DNA of 64,000 nt from an uncultured Actinomycetes bacterium (GCA_963733135.1 CAVTBX010000005.1:77450-141449); one strand, 5' to 3'. Positions 12,708 through 31,397 are shown, counted from the stretch's first letter. The notes: generated by a model from the letters alone, not told the origin. A program made the numbers and translations.

Positions 12708-12735
12708 AGATCGGCATCCCCCGCCTGCGGCTTGA
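12708..12735 (-). promoter_or_regulatory. Sigma-28 (FliA/SigD/WhiG)-type promoter of pilC
   Basis: Minus strand reads TCAAG-N15-GCCGATCT, then 10 nt to the ATG. Confidence 0.65.
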
Positions 12736-12759
12736 GGGCGAACGGACGCCTGCCGATGA
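12732..12759 (+). promoter_or_regulatory. Sigma-28-type promoter of the divergent minor pilin gene
   Basis: TTGAG-N15-GCCGATGA, then 8 nt to in-frame GTG 12768. Its -35 overlaps the pilC -35 within the hexamer CTTGAG (12731-12736). Confidence 0.55.
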
Positions 12760-12767
12760 AAGAACCG

Positions 12768-13530
12768 GTGTTCACGCGGCGTCTACGTGCGGTCCGGGCC
12801 GCCTCGCCAGAGGCCGGCTTCGGCATGATGGAGCTTCTGATCGCGGTCTCGATCCTGTCGATCGGGATTCTCGCGGTCTTCACGCTCATGAACTCCGGGA
12901 TGGTGCAGATCCAGCGCGCCGCCTCGATCTCGACGGCCGCGGCGCTCGCCGAGGTCGCGGATGGAGAACTTCCGCGCGGTGAAGTTCACCGCCATCGGGC
13001 TCGCGGACACGGAAGTCGCGACCGCGGACGCGACCTACGCCGCCGACAGCGCCTACCGCACGGACACGCCGACGACGACTGCGTCGACGGCTCTCACGAG
13101 CAGCGGCACGAGCCTGACGGTGGCGAGCACGGCCGGCTTTCCGGCCGCGGCGCCCTTCCGGGTCTCGATCGACAGCGAGGTCCTCCAGGTCGTGGCCGTC
13201 AGCGGCACGACGTGGACAGTCTCCCGCGGTCAGGACTACACGGTTGCGGCTGCCCATTCGGCAAGCGCGACGGTCGCCCTCAAGCAACGCGTTCACCTGC
13301 CGGTGTGTGGCACCTCCCCGTGCACGAACTGGCACCCGACGGAAACCGTGACAGGAGCCGACGACCGCAGCTACCGGGTCGACACGTACGTCACGTGGCA
13401 GCTCACTCAGAACTCGGCTGGCACGACCGGGCGAAACGCCAAGCGCGTCACGATCGTCGTTCGAAACGCGACGACCATGCAGGTCTTCGCTCGGGCGACC
13501 TCGACGTTCGACGAGGCCACAGGGCTCTAG
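12768..13530 (+). pseudogene. PilV-like minor (pseudo)pilin interrupted by a +1 frameshift near 12950-12962
   Basis: The prepilin N-terminus (PEAG/FGMMELLIAVSILSIGILAV) is in frame 3 (ORF 12732..). The body (MENFRAVKF...) is in frame 1 (ORF 12961..13530). Frame 1 has a TGA at 12889. Deleting one G in GTCGCGGATGG restores the reading ...AAALAEVAMENFRAVKF... Confidence 0.6.
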
Positions 13531-14816
13531 GAAACGCGGCCGGCCTGTTCCTGGAGGCTGACGGCCCGCTCCAGAAGCTCGAACGCCTCGTCCCGGCGAC
13601 CAAGGGCCTTCAGGACGTCGGCGAGGCGACGGTACGCCGTAACCAGTGATCCGCTGGCGCCGGTGCGCTCCAGGCGCTCGACGGCCCGCTCGTAGAGCTC
13701 GCGGGCGTGCTCTGTGTCGCCGAGGCTCTCGGAGATCTCTCCGAGGAGAAGCAAGGCTCGGCCCGACTCCGCAGGTTGCGAGCCGGTAATTCCGTGGGCG
13801 ACCTCACCGGCCACGGCCCTTGCCTCCTCCTTGCGCCCGACAGCGAGGAGGGCGCGCGCTTCCTCGAGCCGGTAACGCGCCTGCTCCTCGGGCGTGCCCA
13901 TCGCAGCGATCGCCGCTCGACCCTCGTCGAGCAGCCTGAGCGCCACTTGCGGGCGGTCGAGCTCCGTGCAGACGGAGGCGAGCAGCTCGCCGACGTGGGC
14001 GACCGCGAAGCCGTCCTCGGTCACTCGGAGAAGCTCCAAGGTGCTGCGGGCCGAGCGCTGTGCCGCCACCATCTGACCTTCATCGGCCAGCCGGCGCGAC
14101 CGAGACCGGAGGAGTCGCGCGCGGGCGTAAGGGTCGGTGATCGTCGAAGCGCGCTCGAGTGCGTCCGCGAGCACGCGCTCCGCATCCGCTGCGCTCCCGT
14201 TCTCGACCAGCACCGTGGCCAGGAGAGCGGAGAACCGAAGCTGTGTGGCGTCGTCGGCCCCTGCCTCGAGCGCCCGGCGAAGGAGCGCGATCGCCTGGGC
14301 CAGCTCCCCGAGCGTGGAGTAGGCGCGCACGAGGGTTTCGACGAGCACCGGCCGCTCGGAGACGTCGTCTCCAGCGAGCTCGAGCGCGAGCTCCAACTCC
14401 TTCACCGCGTCGCCTAGCTCGCCCTCCCGATACGCGAGGCGGCCGAGCCCTTCGTGAGCCCGCGAACGAGAGCCGTCGTCGCGGAGCTCCGGGAAGAGAG
14501 CGGTATAGAGCGTCCGCGCCTCGTCTCGCTCGTCAAGGCGAAGCGCCACTTCTGCGTCGACGAGCCTGCTTGCGAGCTCTTGGTCTCGGTCGCCGGTGGC
14601 CAGGTAGTCCTCCGTGACCCCGAGCCGCCGTCCGAGCTCCCGGAGGAGTTGGAGGGAAGGGATGCGGTCGCCGGCTTCGATCCGCGAGATGTACGCCGGG
14701 GAGCACCCCGAGAACGAGAGATCGCGCTGGCTCACCCCCGCCCGCTCACGGGCCTCACGGAGACGTCGACCCACCTCACGCGGAGAATCTACGTGCTGTG
14801 ACTTTTGTCTTGGCAC
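13527..14816 (-). CDS. XRE-family HTH + TPR-repeat transcriptional regulator
   Basis: N-terminal HTH_3 (GRRLREARERAGVSQRDLS...YISRIEAG), followed by about 350 aa of TPR-like helical repeats. GTG start. Confidence 0.8.
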   Translation of the reverse strand: MPRQKSQHVDSPREVGRRLREARERAGVSQRDLSFSGCSPAYISRIEAGDRIPSLQLLRELGRRLGVTEDYLATGDRDQELASRLVDAEVALRLDERDEARTLYTALFPELRDDGSRSRAHEGLGRLAYREGELGDAVKELELALELAGDDVSERPVLVETLVRAYSTLGELAQAIALLRRALEAGADDATQLRFSALLATVLVENGSAADAERVLADALERASTITDPYARARLLRSRSRRLADEGQMVAAQRSARSTLELLRVTEDGFAVAHVGELLASVCTELDRPQVALRLLDEGRAAIAAMGTPEEQARYRLEEARALLAVGRKEEARAVAGEVAHGITGSQPAESGRALLLLGEISESLGDTEHARELYERAVERLERTGASGSLVTAYRRLADVLKALGRRDEAFELLERAVSLQEQAGRVS

Positions 14817-14826
14817 TCATTAGCCT

Positions 14827-14832
14827 ATTGTA
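14827..14832 (-). promoter_or_regulatory. Housekeeping-type -10 box (TACAAT) of the regulator gene
   Basis: Minus strand reads GCGATACAATAGGCTAATGA-GTG, so the -10 box lies 10 nt from the start codon (leaderless-like). No GCCGAT motif is present here. Confidence 0.4.
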
Positions 14833-14926
14833 TCGCCTCACCGGGCAGCCAGCATCGCTTCGCCCCCGCGGCGGCGTTGGAGCGCGCGGCGAGGGACGAT
14901 AACTCCCCGCCCGATCGATCGCTCGG

Positions 14927-15703
14927 CTACTGGAACTGGATGCCGAGGAGCTTGATCGAGTAGCGGATCCCGTCCGGCTGGCTCACGAGGTTGAGCGTCT
15001 TGCCGAGCCTGACGCGGATCGCCTTCTTGCCGTTCGAGAACTCGCCGGTCACAAGGCCCACCCAGGCGCTGGAGCTCGAGAGCCTTGTGACTGTGAAGAG
15101 CTTGTCACCCTTCGGGAAGGGCTCGTCGAGAGCAACCGTCTGCCTGTCGCCGTTCACCTTGATGACAGCGGCGGTCGGCTCAGCATCGTCTGGATCGTCG
15201 GAGCCGGAGGGACCTGGATCGAAGGTTCCGCCGGAGCCCGAGCCGGCGCCTCCGCCTCCACCCGGATCGGTCGGCGCGGGCGTCACCGTGGCGCCGGCAG
15301 GCTCGGGCGGGGTCGTGTCGACGATCTGGCGGAACGGATCCTTGCCGAAAAAGCGGTCGAAGGTGACGAGCTGGCCGGTTTCGGCGGGCACCGGCTCATC
15401 CGACTCGGGAAGCGGCAGCGATCCGTCGGCCGGGGCCTCCATGGGCGCGGCGCCGGGGGCCGAGGTGGAGGGTGGGGGCGCGGTGGACGGATCGGGTGTC
15501 GCGCCGGGGGGAGTCGCCTCGGTCGGCGTCGGCGTCTCGACGGGCGTCGCAGCCGGCTCGTCCCCGCCGGTCAGCATCTTGAGGTAGCCCGGGCCCTGCC
15601 AGACCATCAAGAGGAGGAACACGGGCACGAGGACGAACAGCAGCTTCTTCTGCTTCGCCTCCTTTTGCTTGCGGAGCATCTCTTGGCCTCTGAGCTTCGC
15701 CAT
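14927..15703 (-). CDS. PilP-like pilus assembly protein (TM anchor, Pro-rich linker, C-terminal beta domain)
   Basis: Last gene of the pilT-pilMNO operon. The C-terminus (VIKVNGDRQTVALDEPFPKGDKLFTVTRL...) resembles the PilP beta-sandwich. The assignment rests on position and architecture. Confidence 0.5.
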   Translation of the reverse strand: MAKLRGQEMLRKQKEAKQKKLLFVLVPVFLLLMVWQGPGYLKMLTGGDEPAATPVETPTPTEATPPGATPDPSTAPPPSTSAPGAAPMEAPADGSLPLPESDEPVPAETGQLVTFDRFFGKDPFRQIVDTTPPEPAGATVTPAPTDPGGGGGAGSGSGGTFDPGPSGSDDPDDAEPTAAVIKVNGDRQTVALDEPFPKGDKLFTVTRLSSSSAWVGLVTGEFSNGKKAIRVRLGKTLNLVSQPDGIRYSIKLLGIQFQ

Positions 15704-15712
15704 GGCCAGTCC

Positions 15713-16411
15713 CTAGCTCCCGGCCGCCTGTGCGTCGGGCGGGTCCGTCGACGTCTCCTCGGTCGTCGTCTCGGTGCTGGTAGTCGTAGTCGTCTCAGTG
15801 GTGGTGGTCGCTGTGGCCGCTGGCGGGGCACCCGGAACGGTCGGCGCCGGGGCGGCTCCGTACGAGTAGGCCGAGAGCGTCAGCACGGCCTCGATCATCG
15901 GGAACTTCTCCTCCGCTGCTTCGTGGAGGTCGAGCGCATCGAGCGTGTACAGGCGACCGCTCGCGTCGAGCACGCCCTCCTTGACCGTGACGAGATTCCG
16001 CATCCGATATAGGAAGTCCGTCAGGTCGTAGTAGTTGCCGTGAAACGTGAGGTTGATCGGGAGCGCGCTCGAGTCGGTGAACGAGACCGGCTCGGCGGGC
16101 TGAATCGAGACGAACTCGATGCCGGCCGAAGCCGCCATCGCGTTCAGCTCGAGCATGATCCCGGCGATGTCCGAGCCGTCCGGCATCGCCTTCGCAAGCC
16201 GGAAGAGATCGGCGACGTCGATCCGGACGCGCGGCGGTGCGGCCGGCGTCTGCGGCCCGGCCAGTGCCGCCTGCTCTTCGAGCGCGGCGATCTCGTCGTC
16301 GAGCTTCGTCGCCTCGGCAGCCTTGGGGCGGATGAGCGCGAAGTAGGCGACTGCGAGAGCGATCGCAAGCGCGGCCGCGAGGACGGGGGTAAGCGGGACT
16401 TGCTTCTTCAC
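15713..16411 (-). CDS. pilO: Pilus assembly protein PilO
   Basis: TM helix, coiled coil and a PilO-like ferredoxin-type core (PINLTFHGNYYDLTDFLYRMRNL). It has a Thr-rich tail. 4-nt overlap with pilN. Confidence 0.72.
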   Translation of the reverse strand: MKKQVPLTPVLAAALAIALAVAYFALIRPKAAEATKLDDEIAALEEQAALAGPQTPAAPPRVRIDVADLFRLAKAMPDGSDIAGIMLELNAMAASAGIEFVSIQPAEPVSFTDSSALPINLTFHGNYYDLTDFLYRMRNLVTVKEGVLDASGRLYTLDALDLHEAAEEKFPMIEAVLTLSAYSYGAAPAPTVPGAPPAATATTTTETTTTTSTETTTEETSTDPPDAQAAGS

Positions 16412-17568
16412 AGCGTCGACCCCGTAGGCGGCTTGACGATCGTGCGGATCACGAACTGGTAGACCTTCGTCCTGGAGGGGCCGAGCAGCGTTTCGGTGCT
16501 CGACTCCAGATCGACGACCGAGAGCTCGGGCAGCACGGCGAGACGCCCGAGCAGCCTGGCGACGGACTCCTGGCTCTTCGTATAGCCCTCGATCGTGAAC
16601 GCGCTCTCCGGGAGCGGGGTTCCCGCCGGCGCTGCGGGATCAGCCGAAGCACCCGCACCGCCCCCTGAAGCCGTGAGCTTCGTCAGGGAGATGTCGTCCG
16701 GCACGACGAGCGAGAACTCGCGCAGCAGACGATCCCAGGCGACACGCCGTCCAAGAGCGCCCGCGAGCGCAACCGTGCGGGCTTCTTCCTCCTGCTGAAG
16801 CTGCGTGTTCGCCTCGTCCTCGGGCGACGGGGCCGGGACGGCCGGATTCGGGCGGGCCGCGGCCGAGGCGCGCAGGCTGTCGGCCTCGGCGCGCTTGTCC
16901 GCGACGCTCGCGTGGAGCATCAGGAAGTACGCGCCGAGCGCTGCGAGGGCGATCAGCGCGACGACCGCGAGTACGAGCTGGGCTGTGTTCGGACGTCGGC
17001 CACGCCCCTCCCGCACGTCGTCCCGGGGGAGAAGATTGAACGCGCGCATGAGCGGCACGGCCGGTGTCGCCGGTGCTTCCCGGCGCGCACGGCGCGGCTC
17101 GCGAGGCATTTTCCCTCGCGCGCGCTTCTCGGCTCTCGCGGCCTCGCGCGTCTCCTGTCTGGCGGCGCGGCGCTCAGCGCGAGAGGGCTTCGGCGCACCG
17201 CGTTCCTTCGGCTCTTTGGGCGCCTTGGGCGCCTTCGAGCCGCCGTCCTTGCGGCGGAGCGAGAAGTTGATCTCCTTCCTCAGGACGCTCTGCTTCTCGG
17301 CAGATGCTTGCGCAGAATCGGTGGACGGGGGCGCCTTTGGGGCCTTGGGGGCTTTGGGCGCCTTGGAGGCGCCGGCCTTGCGACGGAGCGAGAAGTTGAT
17401 CTCCTTCTTCAGGACGCTCTGCTTCTCGGCGGGTGCCTCCGCCGGCCCGGCCGCGGCGTTGGCCGCGGACGCGTCAGGCTCGGGCGATGCCGCCTCGGGC
17501 TTCTTCGGCTTCCCCTTTCCTCGCGCGAAGAGGTCCGAGACCTTGATCTCCTTGTTCCAGTCGGGCAT
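16408..17568 (-). CDS. pilN: Pilus assembly protein PilN with a ~165-aa Lys/Pro/Ala-rich N-terminal extension
   Basis: The conserved PilN motif FNLLPRD is followed by a TM helix and a coiled coil. The N-terminal extension contains 43-aa tandem repeats. 1-nt overlap with pilM. Confidence 0.72.
   Translation of the reverse strand: MPDWNKEIKVSDLFARGKGKPKKPEAASPEPDASAANAAAGPAEAPAEKQSVLKKEINFSLRRKAGASKAPKAPKAPKAPPSTDSAQASAEKQSVLRKEINFSLRRKDGGSKAPKAPKEPKERGAPKPSRAERRAARQETREAARAEKRARGKMPREPRRARREAPATPAVPLMRAFNLLPRDDVREGRGRRPNTAQLVLAVVALIALAALGAYFLMLHASVADKRAEADSLRASAAARPNPAVPAPSPEDEANTQLQQEEEARTVALAGALGRRVAWDRLLREFSLVVPDDISLTKLTASGGGAGASADPAAPAGTPLPESAFTIEGYTKSQESVARLLGRLAVLPELSVVDLESSTETLLGPSRTKVYQFVIRTIVKPPTGSTL
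17205..17430 (-). repeat. Tandem 129-bp (43-aa) coding repeat inside pilN
   Basis: GGAGCGAGAAGTTGATCTCCTTC(C/T)TCAGGACGCTCTGCTTCTCGGC occurs at 17256 and 17385. It encodes AEKQSVL(K/R)KEINFSLRRK...SKAPKAPK. Confidence 0.85.
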
Positions 17569-18635
17569 CAGACGCCCATCCCGAGACCGATCGGAACGGC
17601 GGAATCGGGGCCGGGCTCGGCCTTGACCCGCTTGCCGAACGTCACGGCAACGGCCGGATCGCCGACCCGCACCGAGACGCCAATCATCTGCTGCACAGCG
17701 GCTGCGAGGCCCGGGAGCTGGGAGCCCCCACCGGCGAGAACGACCTCGCGGATCCCGAGCGAGCCTTCCTGCGACTGGTAGAACTGAAGCGACGAGACGA
17801 GCTCGCGGCCGAAGCTCTGGAGCCCGAGCGTGATCGCCTCACGGGCCTTCGCCGCCTGATCCGGCTCGAGCCCCTCGGGGAGTGCGCCGCCCTCCAGGGG
17901 AAGTTCCCGCTTGATCCGCTCGGCCTCGTCGACATCGACTTCGAGGGCGCGCGCGACAGCGCCGGTGAGCGAGGCTCCGCCCCACGCGAGGACACGCGTG
18001 AAGTCGCACGTCACGCCGTCCGAGACCGCCAGCGTCGAGCGTTCTGAGCCGACCGCGACCGCGACGAGGGCGGCCCGCTCGGTTCCCGGCGCGACCGCCA
18101 CGTCGGCCGGCGGAAGGAGCGACCGAAGGAGGGCGAAGGCTTCCAGGTCGATCCCGACGAGCTTCACCCCGGCCGCCTTGCAGGCCTGCGTGTAGCCCGA
18201 GATCAGATCGCGATAGGCGACGACCAGGAGCACCTTCTTTCGCGGGAGCCCCTCTGGGTCGCAGTCCTCGGAGAGAACCTGGTAGTCCAGCACCGCCTGG
18301 TCGAGCGGTATCGGCAGCGCCTCCTGGGCGCGGAACCGCACGGCGTTCGCGACTTGCTTCGGGTCGGCGATGCCCTCGAGCTCGATCGTCCGGACGCCGA
18401 TCCGGTTGTTGGCGACACCGACCCGGACGGCCCGCTTCGGGAGCTTGTGCTTCCGGAAGAACGACTTCAGGGCCTGGCCGAGAGCCTCGACCTCTCTCAC
18501 TTCGCCGCCCATCACGATGCCGCGCGGGAGCGGCTCAGAGGCGATCTGGTGCACCTCGACAGAGCCGTTGACGGACACGCGGGCAGCGACCAGCCGCGAC
18601 GCCCCGATCTTCAGTCCGACGATCTCGCGGGCCAC
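17568..18635 (-). CDS. pilM: Pilus assembly ATPase-like protein PilM (actin/FtsA fold)
   Basis: 355 aa with a PilM_2-like sequence (VGLKIGASRL...VLAGGGSQLPGL). GTG start directly after the pilT stop. Confidence 0.9.
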   Translation of the reverse strand: MAREIVGLKIGASRLVAARVSVNGSVEVHQIASEPLPRGIVMGGEVREVEALGQALKSFFRKHKLPKRAVRVGVANNRIGVRTIELEGIADPKQVANAVRFRAQEALPIPLDQAVLDYQVLSEDCDPEGLPRKKVLLVVAYRDLISGYTQACKAAGVKLVGIDLEAFALLRSLLPPADVAVAPGTERAALVAVAVGSERSTLAVSDGVTCDFTRVLAWGGASLTGAVARALEVDVDEAERIKRELPLEGGALPEGLEPDQAAKAREAITLGLQSFGRELVSSLQFYQSQEGSLGIREVVLAGGGSQLPGLAAAVQQMIGVSVRVGDPAVAVTFGKRVKAEPGPDSAVPIGLGMGV

Positions 18636-19778
18636 CTAGTTCACCGCCCGCAGGCTGGAGGCGTCGACGCCGCCTCGCTTCAGGATTCCCTCGAGCTGGT
18701 CGGGACGGCTCGAGCGCGCGAGCGCGACCTCGACCGAGACGATGCCCTTCATCACGAAGTCGGCGAGGTTCTGCTCGAGGGTCTGCATGCCGCGCTGCGT
18801 GCCGGTCTGCATGACCGAGTAGATCTGCTCGACCTTCGCCTGGCGAATCAAGTTCCGGACGGCGTCGTCTGGGAAGAGGATCTCGACCGCGGCGACCCGG
18901 CCGCTGCCGTCGAGACGCGGGAGGAGCGTCTGGGTCACGACGCCCTGGAGCGTGGCCGCGATCTGGACGCGCACCTGCTCCTGCTGAGCCGCCGGGAAGA
19001 CATCGATCAGACGGTCGACTGTCGACGGCGCGTCCTGCGTGTGGAGCGTCGCGAAGACGAGGTGGCCGGTCTCGGCCGCGGTCAGGGCGGTCGCGATGGT
19101 CTCGAGGTCGCGCATCTCGCCGAGAAGAATCACGTCGGGGTCCTGGCGGAGCGCGCCACGGAGAGCATCGGCGAAGCTGGTTGCGTCCGGGCCGATCTCC
19201 CGCTGGTTGACGATGCAGCGCTTATGCCGGTGGAGGAACTCGATCGGGTCCTCGATGGTCATGATGTGGTCGGCCCGCGACTCGTTGATCTCGTCGATGA
19301 GCGCCGCGAGCGTGGTCGACTTGCCGGAGCCGGTCGGGCCCGTGACGAGCACCAGGCCGCGGGGGCGCTTGCCGAGCTCCGAGATCGATTGCGGCATGCC
19401 GAGGTCGGTGAGCGTCTTCAGCTCGGCCGGGATCATCCGGAAAGCCGCGCCGAGGCTTTCCCGCTGGAAGTAGACATTCACGCGGAAGCGCGCGAGGCCG
19501 GGGATCGAGTACGAGACGTCGATCTGGCGCTTGATCTCGAGGTGCTTCTGCTGCTCGGTGGAGAGGATCCGGTAGAGCAGCCGCTGGGTCTCGTCCGGCA
19601 TCAGCCGGTCGAACTCCTTCAGGCGCTCGAGCTGGCCCATCACGCGCACGGTCGGCTCAGCGCCGACGGTGACGTGCAGGTCCGAGGATCCGCGCGCGAC
19701 CATCTGCTCGAGCAGATCGTCGATCGAGCGGACCGCTCGAGGCTCTGTAACTCCATGCGCTGCGTACGTGGCTTCCAT
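18636..19778 (-). CDS. pilT: Twitching-motility retraction ATPase PilT
   Basis: ATG at 19778 with a GGAGGGAG RBS. Walker A GPTGSGKST, Asp box, Walker B VILLGEMRD and His box TLHT are present. 380 aa. Confidence 0.9.
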   Translation of the reverse strand: MEATYAAHGVTEPRAVRSIDDLLEQMVARGSSDLHVTVGAEPTVRVMGQLERLKEFDRLMPDETQRLLYRILSTEQQKHLEIKRQIDVSYSIPGLARFRVNVYFQRESLGAAFRMIPAELKTLTDLGMPQSISELGKRPRGLVLVTGPTGSGKSTTLAALIDEINESRADHIMTIEDPIEFLHRHKRCIVNQREIGPDATSFADALRGALRQDPDVILLGEMRDLETIATALTAAETGHLVFATLHTQDAPSTVDRLIDVFPAAQQEQVRVQIAATLQGVVTQTLLPRLDGSGRVAAVEILFPDDAVRNLIRQAKVEQIYSVMQTGTQRGMQTLEQNLADFVMKGIVSVEVALARSSRPDQLEGILKRGGVDASSLRAVN

Positions 19779-19795
19779 GGCTCCCTCCGCGCCAC

Positions 19796-20324: not shown

Positions 20325-20344
20325 TTCAGGCTCTGGTTCGGTAC

Positions 20345-22670: not shown

Positions 22671-24479
22671 TCAGATGAGGACGCGGCCTAGCTCTTCGAG
22701 ACTCGTAAGGCCTGAGGCGGCCTTGGCGAGGCCGTCGTCCCAGAGCATCTTCATGCCGCTCTCCATGGCCGCTCGCTCGAGGTCCTCGCGGCTCGCGTGC
22801 CGGGCAGCGAGCGCGCCGAGCTCCTCCGTCATGACCATGAGCTGGTAGACGCCGATCCGGCCCTTGTAGCCCGTCTGCCCGCACCGGGGGCAGCCGCGCT
22901 TGCGATAGAGGCTGATGCCGTCTGCGGCCGCCACCTGCTCGGGCGAGAAGCGGGCCGCGAGCATCTCCTCGCGCGTCGGGATGTACATCTCGCAACAGTG
23001 CGTGCAGAGCTTCCGCGCGAGTCGCTGGGCCAGCACCGCTGAGACAGCTGCGCCGGTCAAGAACGGCTCGACACCCATCTCGTTGAGCCGCGTCAGAGCG
23101 GCCGGAGCATCGTTCGTGTGGAGCGTCGAGAGCACGAAGTGACCGGTGAGTGCCGCCTCGATCGCCATCTTGGCCGTCTCGACGTCGCGGATTTCGCCGA
23201 CCATCACGACGTCGGGATCGGAACGCAGGATCGAGCGGAGCGCCGCCGAGAACGTCATTCCGGCTCGGGGATTGACCTGCACCTGGTTCAAGCCCGCGAG
23301 CCGGTACTCGACCGGGTCCTCGACGGTGATGATGTTGACCTCGGCGCGGTTGATCTCCGCGAGCGACGCGTAGAGCGTCGTCGACTTACCGGAGCCGGTC
23401 GGCCCGGTGACGAGCAGCGCGCCCGTCGGCTTGCGGATGATCTCCTCGAGCTGAGCGCGCATGTCGTCTGCCAGACCAAGCTCTTCGAGGGTCGGCGCCT
23501 TCTTCGACTTGTCGAGGAGGCGCATGACGATCATCTCGCCCTCGACGCTCGGGAGCACAGCGACACGGATGTCGAGCAAGCGCCCGGCCGCCTTCGCGGA
23601 CAGCGAGATGCGCCCGTCCTGCGGCTTTCGCCGCTCGGCGATGTCGAGCTTCGCGAGCACCTTGAGGCGTGTCGTCACGGCCATCGAGAGCCGCTTCGGG
23701 ATCCGCTGCACCTCGTGGAGAACACCGTCGACCCTGAGCCGAACGACGAGCGCGTCCTCCTGCGGGTCGAAATGGACGTCCGAGGCGCCGTCCTCGGCCG
23801 CCTGGAGGATGATCGAGTTCACGAGCCGGACGAGCGGCGCATCGGAGACCCCGTCGTCCGCTTCGAGATCGTCCTCGTCGTCGGATTCCGTCTCGACCTC
23901 GAGCTCGTCTTCGACGAGCGCCGCACGCTCCCACGCCTCGCTCTGGCGGATCTTGCGCCGGAGCTCGATCTCGATGTCCTCGCGCGGCGCAACCCCGATC
24001 TCGAGCGTGTGGCGGGTCGCGAGGCGAAGCTCGTCGACCGTCTGGATGTTCGACGGGTCGGCGATTGCGATCTTCAGGACGTTGCCCTCCAGCGCGTACG
24101 GCAGGGCGACCGCGCGCTCGAGCACGTGCGTCGGAATCTCGTCGAGCGCGGCCTTGTCGATCCCGACCGCGGAAAGGTCGACGAACGGCATGTGATGCGT
24201 GGAGGCGAGCACGCGCGCCAGGCCGGACCCGGGCGCGGCGCCTTCGTCGACGAGTGCCTTCGCGAGCGAGCCGGTGCCGGCGCGCGAGCGAGCCTGCGCC
24301 AGCCGGTCGGGGGCGATCAGCCCAGTCGTCTCGAGGAGATCGGCGACGAGCTCGGTGATCGGGTTCGGCGCGATGCCTGCGCCACGCAGAGGCTCGCCCG
24401 AGATCTCGGGCAGCCGTGACCCCTCACCGCTCGTGCCGGCGCCGGGCCCCCTGATCTGATGCAGATCGTCGAACTCCAC
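22671..24479 (-). CDS. pilB: Type IV pilus assembly (extension) ATPase PilB/GspE
   Basis: 602 aa. Contains an N-terminal MshEN/GSPII domain, Walker A GPTGSGKST and the tetracysteine motif CTHCC...CPRC. Confidence 0.92.
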   Translation of the reverse strand: MEFDDLHQIRGPGAGTSGEGSRLPEISGEPLRGAGIAPNPITELVADLLETTGLIAPDRLAQARSRAGTGSLAKALVDEGAAPGSGLARVLASTHHMPFVDLSAVGIDKAALDEIPTHVLERAVALPYALEGNVLKIAIADPSNIQTVDELRLATRHTLEIGVAPREDIEIELRRKIRQSEAWERAALVEDELEVETESDDEDDLEADDGVSDAPLVRLVNSIILQAAEDGASDVHFDPQEDALVVRLRVDGVLHEVQRIPKRLSMAVTTRLKVLAKLDIAERRKPQDGRISLSAKAAGRLLDIRVAVLPSVEGEMIVMRLLDKSKKAPTLEELGLADDMRAQLEEIIRKPTGALLVTGPTGSGKSTTLYASLAEINRAEVNIITVEDPVEYRLAGLNQVQVNPRAGMTFSAALRSILRSDPDVVMVGEIRDVETAKMAIEAALTGHFVLSTLHTNDAPAALTRLNEMGVEPFLTGAAVSAVLAQRLARKLCTHCCEMYIPTREEMLAARFSPEQVAAADGISLYRKRGCPRCGQTGYKGRIGVYQLMVMTEELGALAARHASREDLERAAMESGMKMLWDDGLAKAASGLTSLEELGRVLI

Positions 24480-24488
24480 CTGATCTCG

Positions 24489-24516
24489 TTATCGGCCTAC
24501 GGGGCGAGATCCCTGA
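24489..24516 (-). promoter_or_regulatory. Sigma-28-type promoter of pilB
   Basis: Minus strand reads TCAGG-N15-GCCGATAA (an exact sigma-28 -10 consensus), then 9 nt to the GTG. Confidence 0.65.
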
Positions 24517-24551
24517 GAGGGGGGATCGACAGCGCGGACCTCGCCGCGCGG

Positions 24552-25304
24552 CTAGAAGCCTGCGAGGTACGCGTCGAGCATCTGCTCGCCCGCGAAGAGG
24601 GCGACGACGGCGCCGAGCGCCAGGAACGGCCCGAACGGAATCCCCATCTTGCGGGCCGCGAGCCCGTGCCTGGCGAGCAAGAAGACCGCCGGGACGAGGG
24701 CAGCGACCATGCCGATCATCAGCCCGACAGTCACGGTCTTACCAAGCATCGCGCCGAGGAGGAGGGCGAGCTTGACGTCGCCCATTCCCATCCCGGCCGG
24801 ATAGGCGAGGAGCGCGAGGAAGAGAAAGAGCGAGGCGCCGAGCGACCCGGCCACCCACTCGACCGTACGATCGGGCTGAAGAGCGACGTGGGTTACGAGC
24901 ACGACGCCAAAGGACGGAAGGACGATCAGGTCGGGCAGGATCCGGCGCTCGACGTCGATTGCCGAGAGCGCGACCAAGACGGCGCAGAAGAACGCTGCGA
25001 CGAACGCCTCACCGGTCAGCCCGAACCGGAAGAAGCAGGCTGCGGCGAGAACGGCTGTCCCGAGCTCGACGACGACATAGCGGACGCCGATGGGCGCCCC
25101 GCACGCCCGGCAACGGCCGCGAAGCGCGACGTAGGAGACGAGCGGGACGTTGTCGTACCAGGCGATCTCGCGCGCGCATGACAGGCACGCCGAGCGCGGC
25201 CTGACGAGCGAGCGGCGCTCGGGGAGCCGTGCGACGAGGACGTTCAGGAAGCTCCCGACGGCAAGTGCGGGCGCGAAGACGAGTCCGGCGAGGGCGAGCT
25301 CCAC
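24552..25304 (-). CDS. pilD: Prepilin peptidase / N-methyltransferase PilD (A24 family)
   Basis: Only the C-terminal 250 aa of ORF 24552..26258 are PilD-like (CLSC...CRAC zinc motif, catalytic GMGMGDVKL). GTG at 25304. Confidence 0.82.
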   Translation of the reverse strand: MELALAGLVFAPALAVGSFLNVLVARLPERRSLVRPRSACLSCAREIAWYDNVPLVSYVALRGRCRACGAPIGVRYVVVELGTAVLAAACFFRFGLTGEAFVAAFFCAVLVALSAIDVERRILPDLIVLPSFGVVLVTHVALQPDRTVEWVAGSLGASLFLFLALLAYPAGMGMGDVKLALLLGAMLGKTVTVGLMIGMVAALVPAVFLLARHGLAARKMGIPFGPFLALGAVVALFAGEQMLDAYLAGF

Positions 25305-25311
25305 CCTCTCT

Positions 25312-25339
25312 CTATCGGCGTGAGGAGCTAGCCGCTTAA
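25312..25339 (-). promoter_or_regulatory. Sigma-28-type promoter of pilD
   Basis: Minus strand reads TTAAG-N15-GCCGATAG, then 7 nt to the GTG. The -35 overlaps the stop codon of the upstream pseudopilin. Confidence 0.6.
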
Positions 25340-27108
25340 CCGCTGTAGAGCTGAGGTGGGTTCGGCTGCGCGTAGACCGCCGGGTTGCCCGGCATGCCGA
25401 CCGGAACCGTGACGATGTTCGGGAACGAGCTCGTCGCCACGTTGTTCGACAGGATGATGTGCGACGCGACGATCGGCCCGTCGGACTTCGAGTTGTTCCC
25501 GAAGGAGACCGCGCCGTTGTGCGCGTAGAGCGCACCCTGGAAGCTCGAGTTGTTGGCGAACTGGATGCCGTTTCCGGCGGACACGCCGCCCTGGCCGGAG
25601 CGCTCGGTGACGAACGTGAGCATCTCCGTGTTCGGGTTCCAGGCGTCGAAGTCGCAGTCGGCGCCGACGACGCCGCCACACAGCTTGCCGCTGAAGTTGA
25701 GGCTTCCTGAGAGGTAGATGGCCGCTTGTCCGTTGTACTGGTTGACCGCACCGTTCGAGATTTGTGCGCTCCCGTCGATGTAGATCGTGCCGCTGACTGT
25801 GAGCACCTTGGTGGTCGCGTTCCATGAGAGCTCGCCCGTGGCAGGATCGATGTGCGTGACCGCCGCGCCGTTGCTGTGGGTAGCTGCCGCCGTGCCCTGC
25901 TGAGCGCGCATGACGGTCCACGTCGTTGTGCCAGCGCCTCCTGTGACGACCATGTACTCGTTATCGATCTTGATCGTGAAGGTTCCGTAGGTGGGGAAGC
26001 CGGCTGCCGATGCCACTGTGAGCGTGGTGTTCGTCGTCGTCGTCGAGCCCGAGAGAGTGGTCGCGTCGGTGGCCGCGGCGGGGCCCACGCGGCAGGTGTA
26101 TGAGGACGCAGGCGTGAGGTTCTGGACCGAGAGGCTGTTGTCCCGGACGCCGTTGTTGTCGAATTGAGGCGGCGAGCCGCTGACGGTCGTGCAGGCCTGG
26201 CTCGGGCCCGGCATGGCGTTTGTGTACCACCCCGTGAAGTCCGCCGACGGGATCGCAAGGACCGGCACAGACGCGCTGACGCCGTTCGTGTACTGGCCCG
26301 AGCCGTTCAAGTACTTGGCCCAGATATTCTTGGCGGAGGTCAAGGTCGCGTCTGAATATCCCCCGCAGGCACCGATCACGTTGCTCGGTGTCGAGCTGGT
26401 TCCGTAGACGCAGTCCTTGCCGACGTAGGTCTCGACGCGCGAGCTCGAGCTGCCTACGCTGGTGTTATTGCTGAGCGAGAGATTCCCCCCGACGACGAGG
26501 TTCGAGGGAGAAAGGTTCGAGTTGTTGCTGAGACAGAGATTTCCCACGACGTAGAATCGCGAGGCTCCCCCGACGTTGTTGTTGAGCGTCTGGTCGCATG
26601 TGTTGCCCGTTCGGGTCGAGAACATGTAGTCCCAGGCTGGGTTGTTGAGCGGCTGCGTCACTGTCGGGACGACGGGAATTTTCGCCGACAACGTGCGAGT
26701 GACATCATTGGTCGCAGCGGTGGGGTTGGCGATCCGGCCCGTGGACGAGACCGACCAAACTTGAGTGCTATGGTCGAGCGTTCCCGACCAGGTCACGGTC
26801 CCGTTGTCGTAGCTTGTCGTTGTGCTCGGTAGAAGATTGGCCTTGAGTGCATTGTTCTCGGGCTTCGAGAGGATCGCGACCATCTCGTTGATCCCGGCCT
26901 CGGCGAGGTCGTAGGCGCTCGCGTTCTCCTTTGAGAACTCGGCGCTTCGCACGTTGGCGCTCGAGTAGTAGATGAGCGTCGTCCCGCTCACCGAGAGCAC
27001 ACCGAGGACCCCGATGGCCATGACGAGAGAAATCCCGTCTTGCCGTCGGAGCCGCCGCAGAAACCTGGAAAGCCGCATGGGTGGTGATAGACCTTTCGGA
27101 GCTCTCAT
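25336..27108 (-). CDS. Large PilX-like pseudopilin / putative pilus tip protein
   Basis: PilX_N-like hydrophobic N-terminus (RRQDGISLVMAIGVLGVLSVSG). About 560 aa are rich in Asn/Ser/Thr/Gly, with beta-helix-like repeats (GNLCLSNNSNLSPSNLVVGGNLSLSNN). The alternative start is ATG 27078. Confidence 0.68.
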   Translation of the reverse strand: MRAPKGLSPPMRLSRFLRRLRRQDGISLVMAIGVLGVLSVSGTTLIYYSSANVRSAEFSKENASAYDLAEAGINEMVAILSKPENNALKANLLPSTTTSYDNGTVTWSGTLDHSTQVWSVSSTGRIANPTAATNDVTRTLSAKIPVVPTVTQPLNNPAWDYMFSTRTGNTCDQTLNNNVGGASRFYVVGNLCLSNNSNLSPSNLVVGGNLSLSNNTSVGSSSSRVETYVGKDCVYGTSSTPSNVIGACGGYSDATLTSAKNIWAKYLNGSGQYTNGVSASVPVLAIPSADFTGWYTNAMPGPSQACTTVSGSPPQFDNNGVRDNSLSVQNLTPASSYTCRVGPAAATDATTLSGSTTTTNTTLTVASAAGFPTYGTFTIKIDNEYMVVTGGAGTTTWTVMRAQQGTAAATHSNGAAVTHIDPATGELSWNATTKVLTVSGTIYIDGSAQISNGAVNQYNGQAAIYLSGSLNFSGKLCGGVVGADCDFDAWNPNTEMLTFVTERSGQGGVSAGNGIQFANNSSFQGALYAHNGAVSFGNNSKSDGPIVASHIILSNNVATSSFPNIVTVPVGMPGNPAVYAQPNPPQLYSG

Positions 27109-27122
27109 CAGAGCCTCGGCTC

Positions 27123-27130
27123 AGATCGGC
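27123..27130 (-). promoter_or_regulatory. GCCGATCT -10-like element upstream of the PilX-like gene
   Basis: Same octamer as at pilC, 14 nt before the ATG at 27108. The best -35 candidate, TCGAA, is at N17 (off-spacing). Confidence 0.35.
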
Positions 27131-27157
27131 GAACCCGCTATCCCCCGTTCGAGCGGA

Positions 27158-27776
27158 TCAGGCTCGGATCGTGTTCCGGAGCACGATGTCCGTCTGGAGC
27201 CGCCAGGTCTGCCAGCCCTCGGTCGGCTTGACGTTGACCCGGAAGTCGACACCGAGCTTCCCGAGCGACGACGACGAGGGGGCCGCGTACGTGAAGGCGC
27301 TGTCGGTCGTGATGTAGTCGGCCACCGTCGCCGCCGTGCCGCCGTTCACCGCGCGGCGAAGCTTGTAGCGGCTCGTACCTACGTTCTGGAAGCTGTAGAC
27401 GACTGTCGTCGTGGCGGCCGCCGACGGCGCTCGGGCAGTGACCCGGCAAGGTCGCCGTCACCGAGGTCGCTGTCGACGTGATGGCGCTCGCGCAGTGGAT
27501 CTCCCGGCGCATCCGGTCGACGGCCAGGCGCGCCTGATCCTGGGCGCGGAAGCGCTGATCGGCTGCGAGCTCGGCTTTCATGCCACGGACGAACAGCGTC
27601 GTCAGCGCTCCGAGGATCACACCCATGATGATCAGCACGATCAGGAGCTCGACAACCGTGACGCCGCGCTGGGAGGTCAGCGAGCGAGAGTGTGAACGGA
27701 ACGGCTTCGCCGTTCCTCCATACGAATCGCGCGGAAAGCGGCGCGATTCGCCCGGCCGCTTAACCGCGGCCTCCAT
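27158..27776 (-). pseudogene. PilW-like pseudopilin interrupted by a +1 frameshift near 27413-27432
   Basis: The N-terminus (QRG/VTVVELLIVLIIMGVILGAL...TATLPGHCPSAV) is in the frame of ORF 27138..27776. The continuation (AAATTTVVYSFQNVGTSRYKLRRAVNGGTAATVADY...LRNTIRA) is in the frame of ORF 27158..27349. The junction lies in GGCGGCCGCC. Confidence 0.6.
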
Positions 27777-28668
27777 CCTCGACCTTCGCGAGCACTCGCT
27801 CGGCGAGCCTGGCGCTCTTCGCGCCGAAGTCCCAGCGCTCCATGATCGACCGGTCGACCCGGATCAGGATCCGGAGCGCTTCGTCGCCGTCATGCCAGCC
27901 GAAGCTCGCGCCCGTCACGATCCACGCGTGCTGGTAGAGCCACCAGTTGACGAGTGCTTTCGTCGGCTTGTTCGCCGCTGCGATGCGCTCTTCGACCAGC
28001 TTGGCCCGGTCGGGTAGCGGCATCTCGTCGGCCGGCTCGACCGGTGCGCCCTCGACGACGAAGTCGGGCTTTCGACTGTCAGTTCCGGCGGGCTCCTCCT
28101 CAGGCTTTTCCTCGAGGGCCGGCTCGTCTTCCTTCGGCCGAGGCTCGTCCTTCTTGGCCTCGTCCGACGGCTTGGGCTCGGCGCCCTGGCCCTCAGGGTT
28201 GCCAGGGTCGGCGGGCTCCTGCTCGCCCTCGTCGGCCGGATCGGGGTCGGCGACGAGGCGGAGAGCGGTGCCGTCGTAGGGGGACGAGTTCTCGGGCAAG
28301 CCGCGCTCGGAATAGGCGGGGTTCCGCTCGAGGCGCAGCTCGATCGTCGGTGTACCTGTGTCGAACACGAGAGTCTCCGGCGCGGGGTTCTGAAGCGCCA
28401 CGAGGTTCGCGGCGTACCCGTCGACCGAGCCGACGACGCGCCAGGCGAACCCGGCGTCCTCGAGGATCCCCTTCGCGAACACGTACGCCTGCCCTCGCAC
28501 GTCCGGCGTGCGCAGGGTCTTGGGACCGACCTGAACTTGGGCGGCTGCGTCCTCCTTCGCCTTCAACTTGTTCGACGCCGCCGCGAAGGTGAGCGAGGTC
28601 GCCGCGAGGAGACCGATCACGATCAGGGCAGCAAGGCGCGGCAAGAGAGCAGCGAGGCGCGCAGTCAT
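27760..28668 (-). CDS. Membrane-anchored protein with a PASTA-like domain, an acidic/Pro-rich linker and an unknown C-terminal domain
   Basis: ATG 28668 (MTARLAALLPRLAALIVIGLLAA), while the ORF track starts at TTG 28695. The segment TPDVRGQAYVFAKGILEDAGF...IELRLE is PASTA-like. Overlaps the next gene by 17 nt. Confidence 0.5.
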   Translation of the reverse strand: MTARLAALLPRLAALIVIGLLAATSLTFAAASNKLKAKEDAAAQVQVGPKTLRTPDVRGQAYVFAKGILEDAGFAWRVVGSVDGYAANLVALQNPAPETLVFDTGTPTIELRLERNPAYSERGLPENSSPYDGTALRLVADPDPADEGEQEPADPGNPEGQGAEPKPSDEAKKDEPRPKEDEPALEEKPEEEPAGTDSRKPDFVVEGAPVEPADEMPLPDRAKLVEERIAAANKPTKALVNWWLYQHAWIVTGASFGWHDGDEALRILIRVDRSIMERWDFGAKSARLAERVLAKVEDGGRG

Positions 28669-28707
28669 AGAGGGAAAATCGGCACGGCGAGGCAAACGCT
28701 CGTGCCT

Positions 28708-30171
28708 CTATCGGGTGAAGGTCACGACGCCCGAGTCAACGGGCTCGGAGTCGACGACGTCTGAGCGAGCGACTTCGAAGAGCGGACCGCCGCCCGTGGG
28801 CGCCTCGTCGCCACCCGCGTCCTGCCAGCTGAACGCGCGATCGGCGAACGACTGGAACCAGGCCGCGTCCTGCGGGTACGAGTGCGTCGGCGAATACTGG
28901 AGATGGAGGTGCGGGCCGGTGGTGTTGCCGGTCAGCCCGACGATGCCGAGCGGAGCGCCGGCCGCGAGCGCCGCGCCGGGCTCGACCGTCGGCTCGAGGT
29001 AGGCGAGATGGCAGTAGACGTAGTCCTGCCCGTCCTCGGCACGGATTGAGAGGCCGATTCCGCAGCGACCAGTGGACGATGGCCAGGCGTCCGTCACGAC
29101 CGCGTCCGCGAGCGCGAAGACGGGCGAGCCTTCCGGGGCCGCGATGTCCGCAGCCGGATAGTCGTGGTGGCGATGCGAGACGGAGACCACCCCGGCGCCA
29201 CCTCCCACGGGGAAGACGTATTCGCCCGAGACCATCACGCCCCCGAAAGCGGCGGCAGTCGCCGGCCTCGTGAACGTGACGGCGCCTGCGGTTGTTGCCG
29301 CCTCCTTGCGAAGCTCGTCGAGGCGCGTGACCTCGTAGTCGAGCTTGGCCCCAAGCCGGTCGAGGCGCTGCGCCACCTCTTCTCGCGCCTGACTCAGGCT
29401 CACGACCTCGGCCTCGAGCTTCCGGAACTGCCGGTCGCCGAGGCTCGGGTCGCCCGCCTTCTGCTCTGCGGCGAGAATGTCCCACTCGAGCTCGTCGGCT
29501 TCCCGCTCGACGGAGACCATCGCCTGGCGGGCTCGGGTGACGCGCTTCCGGGCGTTCGTGATCCGCTTCTCGATGTCGTCGATCGCGAAGACGAGTCGAG
29601 GCCCGGCCGGCTGCGTCGGGAAGCCCGGGGCGAAGAGGCTCGAGCCCAGGTCGTCGCCGAACAGCCGGGCAAGCTCGAGGACGTCGTCGACGTACCACTG
29701 CGCGTGGTTGTAGGCGAAGATCGCACGCGACAGGTCGGTCGCCGCGCCGGCGGCCGCGAGGTAACGGGCGGCCGAGTAGACACCGTCCTCGGGATTCCAG
29801 GGGCTCGCGACGCCGTCCCCGTTCCCGTCGGTGCCCCAGCGAAGCCAGGTGTCCGGGATGAACTGCATCCAGCCGAGCGCACCCGCCGAGCTGGGCCCCA
29901 TGTTCTGGCCGAAGTTCGACTCGATCTTGTTGATCGCCCCGAGCACCTGCCACGGGACGCCGTAGGCCGCGCCCGCGGCACGCCAGAGAGTCAGGAGCTC
30001 GTCGTAGGTGCGTACCTCGTAGACAGCAGGCGGCGTCTTCCAGTTCGGGGGGAGCCTGAGACCTGGGCCGTTCGGGGTCGAGGCGCTCGGGAGCGGGGCC
30101 GCGCTCGACGTGCTCCCGGCGATCGCTGCGAACACGAGCGCCAGAGCCGAGATAACGATGACCCGCCGCAT
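28708..30171 (-). CDS. Secreted bifunctional cell-wall hydrolase: lytic transglycosylase + coiled coil + M23 peptidase
   Basis: Signal peptide present. SLT-type segment (NKIESNFGQN...GALGWMQFIP). About 100 aa of coiled coil. M23 motifs present (HHDYPAADI, GPHLHLQ). Confidence 0.85.
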   Translation of the reverse strand: MRRVIVISALALVFAAIAGSTSSAAPLPSASTPNGPGLRLPPNWKTPPAVYEVRTYDELLTLWRAAGAAYGVPWQVLGAINKIESNFGQNMGPSSAGALGWMQFIPDTWLRWGTDGNGDGVASPWNPEDGVYSAARYLAAAGAATDLSRAIFAYNHAQWYVDDVLELARLFGDDLGSSLFAPGFPTQPAGPRLVFAIDDIEKRITNARKRVTRARQAMVSVEREADELEWDILAAEQKAGDPSLGDRQFRKLEAEVVSLSQAREEVAQRLDRLGAKLDYEVTRLDELRKEAATTAGAVTFTRPATAAAFGGVMVSGEYVFPVGGGAGVVSVSHRHHDYPAADIAAPEGSPVFALADAVVTDAWPSSTGRCGIGLSIRAEDGQDYVYCHLAYLEPTVEPGAALAAGAPLGIVGLTGNTTGPHLHLQYSPTHSYPQDAAWFQSFADRAFSWQDAGGDEAPTGGGPLFEVARSDVVDSEPVDSGVVTFTR

Positions 30172-30180
30172 GTCCTCGGC

Positions 30181-31353
30181 CTAACCCGCGACCCGAAGGC
30201 CGACTGACTCGTCGTCTGGCTCCGAGTCTTGCTCAGCGGACGCCTCCTCCTCGACGGCCTCCGCACTCTCCTCGAACTTCTTCTTGCGGAGCGCCTGGTC
30301 GACTTCGATCTCGAAGTCGTGCCGGTTGCTCGCTGCGGCCGCGGCGGTCTCGAAGTCGACGACATCGTCGAGAACCAGCCTCACGAGGTGCTGCGAGAAG
30401 CTCTGCATGAGGTGGAAGGAGCCGTCCTCGATCGCCTCGGTGATCTCCTCGGCCCTCGCGTCGCGGATGAGGTCGGCGACACGCGCGGTGTTAACCATCA
30501 CCTCGACGGCTGCGATCCGGCCGTTGTCCTTGCGCGGCAAGAGGCGCTGGCTGATGACGCCGCGCAGGACGCCGGCGAGGATCTGCCGCGTCATCTCCTG
30601 CTTCTCGGGAGGGAAGAACTCGACGAGCCGGCCGATGGTCTCGGCGGCGTCGACCGTGTGGAGCGTCGAGAGCACGAGGTGCCCGGACTCGGAGGCCTGA
30701 AGCGCCGCCCGCGCCGACTCCTCGTCGCGGAGCTCGCCGATCAGGATCACGTCGGGGTCCTGGCGGAGCGCCCGGCGCAGTCCCTCGAGGTACGAGGAGG
30801 TGTCGAGCCCGACCTCGCGCTGGTTGACGATGCAGCCCTTGTCGTCGTGGACGATCTCGATCGGGTCTTCGATCGTGACGATGTGCTGCTGTCGCGAACG
30901 GTTGATCTTGTCGAGCATGGCGGCGAGCGTCGTCGACTTGCCGGACCCGGTCGCTCCGGTCACGAGGATGAGCCCGCGGTGCTCGTCCGCCAGCTTCTCC
31001 ACGCCATGCGGCAGGCCGAGCTTCTCGAAGCTCGGCACGGTCTTCGGGATGTAGCGGAACGCGAAGGAGATCGCGCCGCGCTGCCGGTACCCGTTGACGC
31101 GAAAGCGCCCGTTGCCGAGGCTCACGTAGGCGGTGTCGAGATCCCCGGACTCGGCGAACTCCTCGCGCTTTCGCGGCGTCCGTTCGGTGACGACGTCGAT
31201 GAAGTGCGCGAGCGTCTTGTCGTCGAGCATGCCCTCGCCGATCACCGGTGTGAGCGTCCCGTCGACGCGAACCATCGGTGGCGAGTCGATCTTCAAGTGA
31301 AGATCGCTGCCGCCGATCTCGATCATGTGTTGGAGGAGGTCGTCCAGGTCCAT
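30181..31353 (-). CDS. Second PilT/PilU-family retraction ATPase
   Basis: ATG 31353 (MDLDDLLQHM). Walker A GATGSGKST and His box TLHT are present. It has an acidic C-terminal tail. 390 aa. Confidence 0.88.
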   Translation of the reverse strand: MDLDDLLQHMIEIGGSDLHLKIDSPPMVRVDGTLTPVIGEGMLDDKTLAHFIDVVTERTPRKREEFAESGDLDTAYVSLGNGRFRVNGYRQRGAISFAFRYIPKTVPSFEKLGLPHGVEKLADEHRGLILVTGATGSGKSTTLAAMLDKINRSRQQHIVTIEDPIEIVHDDKGCIVNQREVGLDTSSYLEGLRRALRQDPDVILIGELRDEESARAALQASESGHLVLSTLHTVDAAETIGRLVEFFPPEKQEMTRQILAGVLRGVISQRLLPRKDNGRIAAVEVMVNTARVADLIRDARAEEITEAIEDGSFHLMQSFSQHLVRLVLDDVVDFETAAAAASNRHDFEIEVDQALRKKKFEESAEAVEEEASAEQDSEPDDESVGLRVAG

Positions 31354-31369
31354 GGCGCAGCCTTTGCGA

Positions 31370-31397
31370 GCATCGGCTGCGAAGGCTCTTTTCTTTA
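31370..31397 (-). promoter_or_regulatory. Sigma-28-type promoter of the pilT2 operon
   Basis: Minus strand reads TAAAG-N15-GCCGATGC (the -35 equals the FliA consensus TAAAG), then 16 nt to the ATG. Confidence 0.6.

Follow-up and report, generated by a model that had tools for sequence, protein, structure and literature searches.

Sigma-28-like promoter motifs recur throughout the type IV pilus locus of a Gaiellaceae-like actinobacterium

We analyzed a stretch of 64,000 nucleotides (nt) from an uncultured Actinomycetes bacterium (GCA_963733135.1, CAVTBX010000005.1:77450-141449), hereafter the window, with positions counted from its first nucleotide. The window has a G+C content of 68% and resembles genomes of the family Gaiellaceae (Actinomycetota; Thermoleophilia; Gaiellales). 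Pfam scans delineated a complete monoderm (single-membrane) type IV pilus locus at 11483..31353 (~11.5-31.4 kb), and a bipartite, putatively sigma-28-type promoter element recurs throughout this locus. The element follows the formula T(C/A/T)(A/G)(A/G)G-N15-GCCGATNN in eight full sites, consisting of an upstream (-35) box and a downstream 8-mer (-10 box), and is accompanied by two or three weaker copies of the -10 box only (Table 1).

The Pfam families represented in the locus are T2SSE (three proteins), T2SSF, Peptidase_A24, PilM_2, PilN, PilO and N_methyl (three proteins), and no Secretin domain was detected within it. The gene content, with PilB, PilC, PilD, PilM/N/O, PilT, prepilins carrying N-methylation motifs and no secretin, is that by which a monoderm type IV pilus is recognized, and the gene identities given in the original prediction, which had been made from the sequence of the window, were correct according to Pfam. 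Gene identities in Table 1 are based on these scans, and start codons were refined afterwards; the minor pilin, when read from GTG 12768, has the prepilin N_methyl motif at residues 15-38.

Table 1. Genes, promoter elements and other features of the type IV pilus locus. Distances are from the last nucleotide of the -10 8-mer to the start codon.
Feature	Position	Strand	Remarks
PilC	11483-12697	-	
pilC promoter	12708-12735	-	TCAAG-N15-GCCGATCT; ATG 12697, 10 nt
Minor-pilin promoter	12732-12759	+	TTGAG-N15-GCCGATGA; GTG 12768, 8 nt
Minor pilin	12768-13530	+	
XRE-TPR regulator	13527-14816	-	No motif
orf14927	14927-15703	-	
PilO	15713-16411	-	
PilN	16408-17568	-	
PilM	17568-18635	-	
PilT	18636-19778	-	
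pilT-pilM-pilN-pilO-orf14927 operon promoter	19796-19823	-	TCAAG-N15-GCCGATAG; ATG 19778
Inverted repeat	19836-19850		CCCTC-N-GGG; between divergent pilT and pilA promoters
pilA -10-only element	19873-19880	+	GCCGATAG; no TCAAG -35; 45-nt leader, ATG 19926
PilA (major pilin)	19926-20324	+	
Terminator-like hairpin	20345-20372	+	12-bp stem; closes pilA unit, immediately 5' of orf20428 promoter
orf20428 promoter	20393-20420	+	TCAAG-N15-GCCGATTC; ATG 20428, 7 nt
orf20428	20428-21420	+	Membrane protein, weak GT87-like match
orf21430 promoter	21393-21420	+	TCAAG-N15-GCCGATAG; ATG 21430, 9 nt
orf21430	21430-22335	+	
PilB	22671-24479	-	
pilB promoter	24489-24516	-	TCAGG-N15-GCCGATAA; GTG 24479, 9 nt
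PilD	24552-25304	-	
pilD promoter	25312-25339	-	TTAAG-N15-GCCGATAG; GTG 25304, 7 nt
PilX-like	25336-27108	-	
PilX-like gene -10-only element	27123-27130	-	GCCGATCT; ATG 27108, 14 nt
Pilin-like	27138-27776	-	
PASTA-domain protein	27760-28668	-	
PASTA gene -10-only element	28676-28683	-	GCCGATTT; ATG 28668, 7 nt; 12.9 bits
SLT+M23 hydrolase	28708-30171	-	
PilT2	30181-31353	-	
pilT2-operon promoter	31370-31397	-	TAAAG-N15-GCCGATGC; 16-nt leader, ATG 31353

All eight full sites, searched as TNRRG-N15-GCCGAT, were located at exactly the coordinates originally predicted, and the claim that the motif precedes essentially every pil transcription unit held, the XRE-TPR gene being the sole unit of the locus that lacks it. 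This loose pattern has 12 matches on both strands of the window, compared to 0.78 ± 0.84 (maximum 3) in 100 dinucleotide-preserving shuffles, none of which reached 12. The four matches beyond the eight sites (18376+, 32781+, 43159- and 46271-), with TCGAG, TAGAG or TGGAG as the -35 box, are intragenic or antisense to genes. There are 103 copies of GCCGAT in the window, of which 12 are accompanied by a matching pentamer; the corresponding chance rate in the shuffles is ~1.2% (0.78 per 65), in contrast to the original estimate of well under 1%.

The published WhiG consensus, T[AC]AA-N16-GCCGAT, has five matches in the window against 0.11 expected, all directly 5' of pil starts, whereas the same boxes at other spacers yield few matches (N14, none; N15, one; N17, none; N18, two). 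Furthermore, with a weight matrix trained only on the orthologous sites of other species, the seven best-scoring matches in the window were all among the eight sites, led by the pilT-operon site (25.2 bits); the pilB site ranked lower because its -35 box, TCAGG, was excluded by the training pattern. All eight sites are oriented toward the gene and lie on the same strand, with the 8-mer ending 7-17 nt before the start codon, and the CGA core of the -10 box is present in 11/11 elements of the window, full and partial.

To assess conservation, we used PilB to find 80 related loci in a one-genome-per-species collection (PilB 68-85% identical; all from species other than that of the window). Nearly all of these are metagenome-assembled genomes (MAGs) labelled Gaiellaceae, Gaiellales, Thermoleophilia or unclassified Actinomycetota. 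Orthologues were identified by tblastn, and a region reaching from 150 nt before to 45 nt after each predicted start was searched for T[AC]AA-N16-GCCGAT with CGA fixed. The motif was present without mismatches at pilC in 43/45 loci; with at most one mismatch at pilD (58/72), pilB (55/79), pilT2 (40/63, rising to 61/63 with at most two) and orf21430 (19/23); and with at most two mismatches at pilT (70/79) and at the minor pilin in its TTGAG variant (46/46). By comparison, at most one mismatch was found in 3% of random 195-nt windows of the same loci, true sites included. At the operon-internal genes pilM, pilN, orf14927, pilin-like and SLT+M23, no locus had the motif with at most one mismatch, and at pilO and the PilX-like gene one locus each did. 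The orf20428 gene itself is found in only 6 of the 80 loci.

The spacers diverge between species while the boxes persist. Across 217 orthologous sites, positions outside the detection pattern are also constrained, with G following T[AC]AA in 80%, T preceding GCCGAT in 80% and A following GCCGAT in 55%; the first and last of these are features of the classical TAAAG...GCCGATAA consensus. In relatives, the distance of 7-10 nt from box to start is kept at pilC, the minor pilin, orf21430, the PASTA gene and pilD. The sequence architecture of the motif, its statistical excess, its orientation and its conservation are thus direct observations.

The pilC and minor-pilin promoters are arranged back to back and have a common palindromic -35 box, CTTGAG (12731-12736), which accounts for the TTGAG variant at the minor pilin. 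This arrangement, including the common -35 box, is conserved in 46/46 loci, and two polymerases probably cannot occupy both promoters simultaneously. Elsewhere, the elements overlap coding sequence: the orf21430 promoter lies within the 3' end of orf20428, and the -35 box of pilD overlaps with the PilX-like stop codon. The -10-only copies that had been reported at pilA and the PilX-like gene are both present, and we identified a third, absent from the earlier list, at the PASTA gene, where 29-37 of the related loci have TTGAC-N15-(T)GCCGAT at a distance of 7 nt from the start. The latter two genes belong to the operon headed by pilT2, which comprises pilT2 and the genes for the SLT+M23 hydrolase, the PASTA protein, the pilin-like protein and the PilX-like protein, among others.

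The 8-mer and the start codon are separated by 7 nt at orf20428, pilD and the PASTA gene, 8 nt at the minor pilin, 9 nt at orf21430 and pilB, and 10 nt at pilC. Such gaps leave no room for a Shine-Dalgarno sequence and coincide with the expected start of a sigma-28 transcript; therefore, the mRNAs of these seven genes are probably leaderless. Longer gaps occur at the PilX-like gene (14 nt), pilT2 (16 nt), pilT (17 nt) and pilA (45 nt). Recognizable Shine-Dalgarno sequences precede pilT, whose 17-nt leader contains GGAGGGAG before the ATG, and pilA, and pilT2 probably keeps a short leader of this type as well. At pilB, no earlier start is possible because there is an in-frame stop inside the 8-mer, three codons upstream, and in many of the related loci the alignment with PilB begins at its first residue.

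A consensus scan of positions 12000-31900 detected no sigma-70-type promoter at the pil starts, and the presence of such promoters there was accordingly rejected. The only convincing match in this range, TTGGCC-N16-TAGAAT (31578-31605, +), precedes the tRNA-Tyr gene (31617-31698), in agreement with the proposal that housekeeping genes carry a different type of -10 box; that the XRE-TPR gene is devoid of the pil motif was likewise confirmed.

The control region of pilA differs from the others. Its leader (19881-19925) includes a strong ribosome-binding site, AAGGAGGA, before the ATG, and GCCGAT without a canonical -35 box is found upstream of pilA in ~36/63 loci. The inverted repeat in this region ends exactly 21 nt upstream of GCCGAT, where the -35 box would be, and this distance is fixed. 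In 36 related loci, the repeat appears at the same position as TCCCyC-N4-6-GrGGG, and, at -24 to -21 from the pilA GCCGAT, the GGGG columns are 76-97% conserved (37 sequences). Judging from this pattern, the repeat looks like a candidate activator (or repressor) site, that is, a second control input to the major pilin, and an activator bound there could replace the -35 contact. The leader also contains a conserved stretch, GAGCCACCGCACGCC in relatives and GAGCCA...ACGCC in the window, which begins ~8 nt past the -10 box. RNAalifold found no consensus structure in the pilA 5' leader, and a structured leader was therefore rejected.

The classical sigma-28 consensus, as known for Escherichia coli FliA and Bacillus subtilis SigD, is TAAA-N15-GCCGATAA. 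The original prediction assigned the pilus element to this class, and indeed both boxes and the spacing match the FliA/SigD/WhiG consensus, while placement and orientation are promoter-like. Classical flagellar and chemotaxis sigma-28 promoters have the same architecture and the same G after TAAA (TAAAG); the differences are that the targets here are pilus rather than flagellar genes and that the -35 box prefers TCAA. We therefore consider it likely that the repeated elements are promoters recognized by an alternative, sigma-28-class sigma factor. Under this interpretation, one sigma factor, whose gene would lie elsewhere in the genome, could switch on the whole pilus machine together, initiating transcription at the eight promoters and at the weaker -10-only ones. 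The co-expressed set would include the ATPases for extension and retraction, the platform and alignment proteins, the prepilin peptidase and the pilins, along with a cell-wall hydrolase and putative glycosyltransferases. Judged by the Rubrobacter analogy, a WhiG homologue is the most likely candidate for this sigma factor; on the same analogy, an RsiG-type anti-sigma factor responding to cyclic di-GMP (c-di-GMP) may restrain it.

Several observations weigh against this assignment. Three of the eight -35 boxes (TTGAG, TCAGG and TTAAG) deviate from T[AC]AA, and the -10-only element of the PilX-like gene is not conserved (1/61 relatives with at most one mismatch), so that this copy is either weak or a chance occurrence. 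The leaderless arrangement depends on start-codon calls that are firm for pilB, reasonable for the minor pilin and less certain for pilC. No sigma-28-family gene was detected in the window or in the 80 loci (1.36 Mb) by phmmer with E. coli FliA or with a hidden Markov model (HMM) of 83 WhiG-like proteins, and none of the WhiG matches in the protein database could be assigned to Gaiellaceae. The RsiG signature E(X)3S(X)2R(X)3Q(X)3D, searched as a regular expression in six frames, is absent from the window and the related loci, and no GGDEF/EAL gene was seen in the window.

The original prediction had already stated that the window holds no sigma factor gene, which our searches bear out, and a sigma gene near the pilus locus was rejected given that neither phmmer nor the HMM matched any open reading frame (ORF) of the window and the 80 loci. 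In the protein database, a Streptomyces venezuelae WhiG query retrieved only Streptomyces proteins, a chimera of the Rubrobacter WhiG sigma-2 and sigma-4 regions (from PDB 7lq4 alignments) retrieved Rubrobacter-like and unlabelled metagenome proteins, and a Conexibacteraceae WhiG query retrieved Solirubrobacteraceae proteins. Proteins named WhiG were found in Solirubrobacteraceae and Conexibacteraceae (Solirubrobacterales); therefore, the class Thermoleophilia has WhiG. The contigs of six WhiG matches contained flagellar-cluster FliA genes or belonged to assemblies outside the 80 loci, and the cluster names of the matches were only Rubrobacteraceae or Actinomycetota. On one actinobacterial MAG contig (L091, 1-3428), a whiG-like gene adjoins rpsB-tsf-pyrH-frr, and on an unrelated contig (L092, 1-3160), a whiG-like gene split into separate sigma-2 and sigma-4 ORFs adjoins dprA. 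This suggests the dprA or rpsB-tsf-pyrH-frr neighbourhood as a place to look for whiG in Gaiellaceae.

Among the motif-downstream genes of the related loci (~20 kb per genome), there was no GGDEF/EAL gene either, and no flagellar gene was found in the window. The only nucleotide-second-messenger enzyme seen in the window is an adenylate/guanylate cyclase-domain protein (40146-41465, -), whose gene is not preceded by the motif.

An alternative that we regard as improbable is that the elements are real promoters, but are read by an extracytoplasmic function (ECF) or other non-sigma-28 sigma factor that has converged on TCAAG / GCCGAT. Some actinobacterial ECF sigma factors use -10 boxes containing CGA or CGT. 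A sigma factor of this kind would fit with the searches described above, in which no sigma-28 gene could be tied to Gaiellaceae, and with the preferred -35 box, which is TCAAG or TTAAG rather than TAAA. However, GCCGATA(A/G), T[AC]AAG and a spacer of 15/16 nt in combination are the signature of sigma-28/WhiG promoters, and T(A/C)AA is explicitly the published -35 box of WhiG2 (PMC12871210). Moreover, the sister lineages Rubrobacter and Solirubrobacterales have WhiG, and that of Rubrobacter reads the same motif at pil genes (PMC8325347).

It is far less probable that the motif is the operator of a DNA-binding regulator. One candidate for such a regulator is the XRE-TPR protein, whose gene lies inside the locus as the only unit without the motif. 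Yet tblastn (E<1e-5) found no counterpart of this gene in the 80 related loci, which retain the motif, so that the XRE-TPR protein was rejected as the reader of the motif, and its gene appears to be a lineage-specific insertion. Furthermore, the motif is asymmetric and oriented toward the gene, it lies too close to the start codon (7-17 nt) for another promoter to fit in between, and its boxes are conserved at -35/-10 spacing with the spacer free to vary. A by-product of chance or composition in GC-rich DNA, to which the abundance of GCCGAT and the four plainly intragenic loose matches might point, is refuted by the shuffles, by the dependence of the signal on spacing and by the conservation of the sites at orthologous positions in dozens of species.

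The sigma-28-type assignment has close published parallels. In Rubrobacter radiotolerans, 12 WhiG promoters were identified by searching for TAAA / GCCGATAA and mapping transcription start sites across the genome; three of them are in the type IV pilus cluster, where they drive nine pil genes, and Rubrobacter xylanophilus has two (PMC8325347; 2021 PNAS). The same work showed that Rubrobacter WhiG is sequestered by dimeric RsiG carrying c-di-GMP, in an (RsiG)2-(c-di-GMP)2-WhiG switch, and that its targets also include diguanylate cyclase/phosphodiesterase genes. Rubrobacteria is reported to be the sister class of Thermoleophilia, in three members of which (Thermoleophilum, Patulibacter and Conexibacter) a single-motif RsiG has been reported (PMC8325347), and RsiG is stated always to co-occur with a WhiG homologue (PMC13595943). 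The locus described here resembles the Rubrobacter case in its TAAA / GCCGATAA-type consensus, in having several promoters per pil cluster and in belonging to a deep-branching, single-membrane actinobacterium. The difference is that the three or two Rubrobacter promoters have mapped starts and that WhiG and RsiG are known there, whereas the eight full and two to three partial sites found here, most of them 7-10 nt from the start codon, are predicted from the sequence.

According to PMC8325347, both flagellar and pilus genes of Actinoplanes are transcribed by WhiG-like (FliA-family) sigma factors. As proposed for the present locus, a flagellar-type (WhiG1-type) sigma factor is reported to direct the type IV pilus genes of the zoospores of Actinoplanes missouriensis (PMC8325347 and PMC12871210). 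Actinoplanes differs in being flagellated and forming sporangia, in having several FliA paralogues and no RsiG, and in its reported WhiG1 consensus, CTCA-N16-17-GCCGAACT, which is not of the GCCGAT form. The WhiG2 consensus has been given as T(A/C)AA-N16-GCCGATAA (PMC12871210; 2026 mSystems). Type IV pilus targets of WhiG have been predicted in Cellulomonadaceae, Jonesiaceae, Sanguibacteraceae, Cryptosporangiaceae and Rubrobacteraceae (PMC12871210 / PMC13595943). Those regulons were likewise inferred from the same consensus upstream of pil genes, with one mismatch allowed and reference genomes only. The text of PMC12871210 / PMC13595943 makes no mention of Thermoleophilia or Gaiellaceae, Gaiella is not mentioned in PMC8325347 or the text of its supplement, and our literature search found no paper dealing with Gaiella together with WhiG, FliA or pili.

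Thus, the wiring is not new in kind, having been published for other actinobacteria, and its original description as an unfamiliar arrangement does not stand: it has been mapped at the level of start sites in Rubrobacter, reported for Actinoplanes and predicted in further families. The new features are the lineage, the dense packing of promoters, a leaderless spacing that is nearly universal, the -35 box common to two divergent promoters and the lack of a -35 box at pilA. Stage-specific piliation, which had also been suggested, is speculation, and the published parallel would be c-di-GMP control through the anti-sigma factor RsiG.

The present findings reveal no new mechanism but extend the published link between sigma-28/WhiG and type IV pili to the uncultured, soil-abundant Gaiellaceae, with conservation across at least 80 species-level genomes. 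This conservation lends weight to the view that the control of pili by WhiG is an old trait of the deep-branching Actinomycetota. For the annotation of MAGs, the prediction is that Gaiellaceae pil genes are co-expressed under a WhiG-like factor, possibly tied to c-di-GMP. In addition, the locus offers an unusually clean natural set of promoters, comprising 8-11 sites within 20 kb whose -35 boxes are of graded quality and whose spacing is mostly leaderless, which could be useful for studies of sigma-28 promoter strength and leaderless expression.

A more tentative possibility, which we hold to be doubtful, is that the Gaiellaceae sigma factor of the sigma-28 type has no flagellar or sporulation role and runs a dedicated pilus regulon of unusual build. 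In such a regulon, nearly every gene head would have its own promoter placed for leaderless mRNA, and pilC and the minor pilin would share the palindromic -35 box; at pilA, the combination of a sigma-28 -10 box with an inverted repeat instead of a -35 box would suggest two-key control by the sigma factor and an activator. If true, this would argue, together with the Rubrobacter data, that in the deepest actinobacterial branches the ancestral role of WhiG was to control pili rather than flagella or spores.

Some of the genes associated with the motif concern the cell envelope. The pilT2 operon includes a fusion of a lytic transglycosylase with an M23 peptidase and a PASTA protein (27760-30171, -), which plausibly serve to remodel the cell wall so that the pilus can cross the thick wall without a secretin. 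The gene with the weak GT87 match, orf20428, sits 3' of pilA. In three relatives (L061, L062 and L067), a PMT_2 (GT-C) glycosyltransferase of 670-710 amino acids is preceded by TCAAG-N15-GCCGATAG, 7-8 nt before the start. The presence of GT87- and PMT_2-type genes under the motif hints at pilin glycosylation inside the regulon. Outside the pilus locus, the window contains a single ORF of 3554 codons (52606-63270, -) encoding a giant protein with fn3, Big_5 and ASH/HYDIN-type Ig-like domains, which is probably a surface adhesin.

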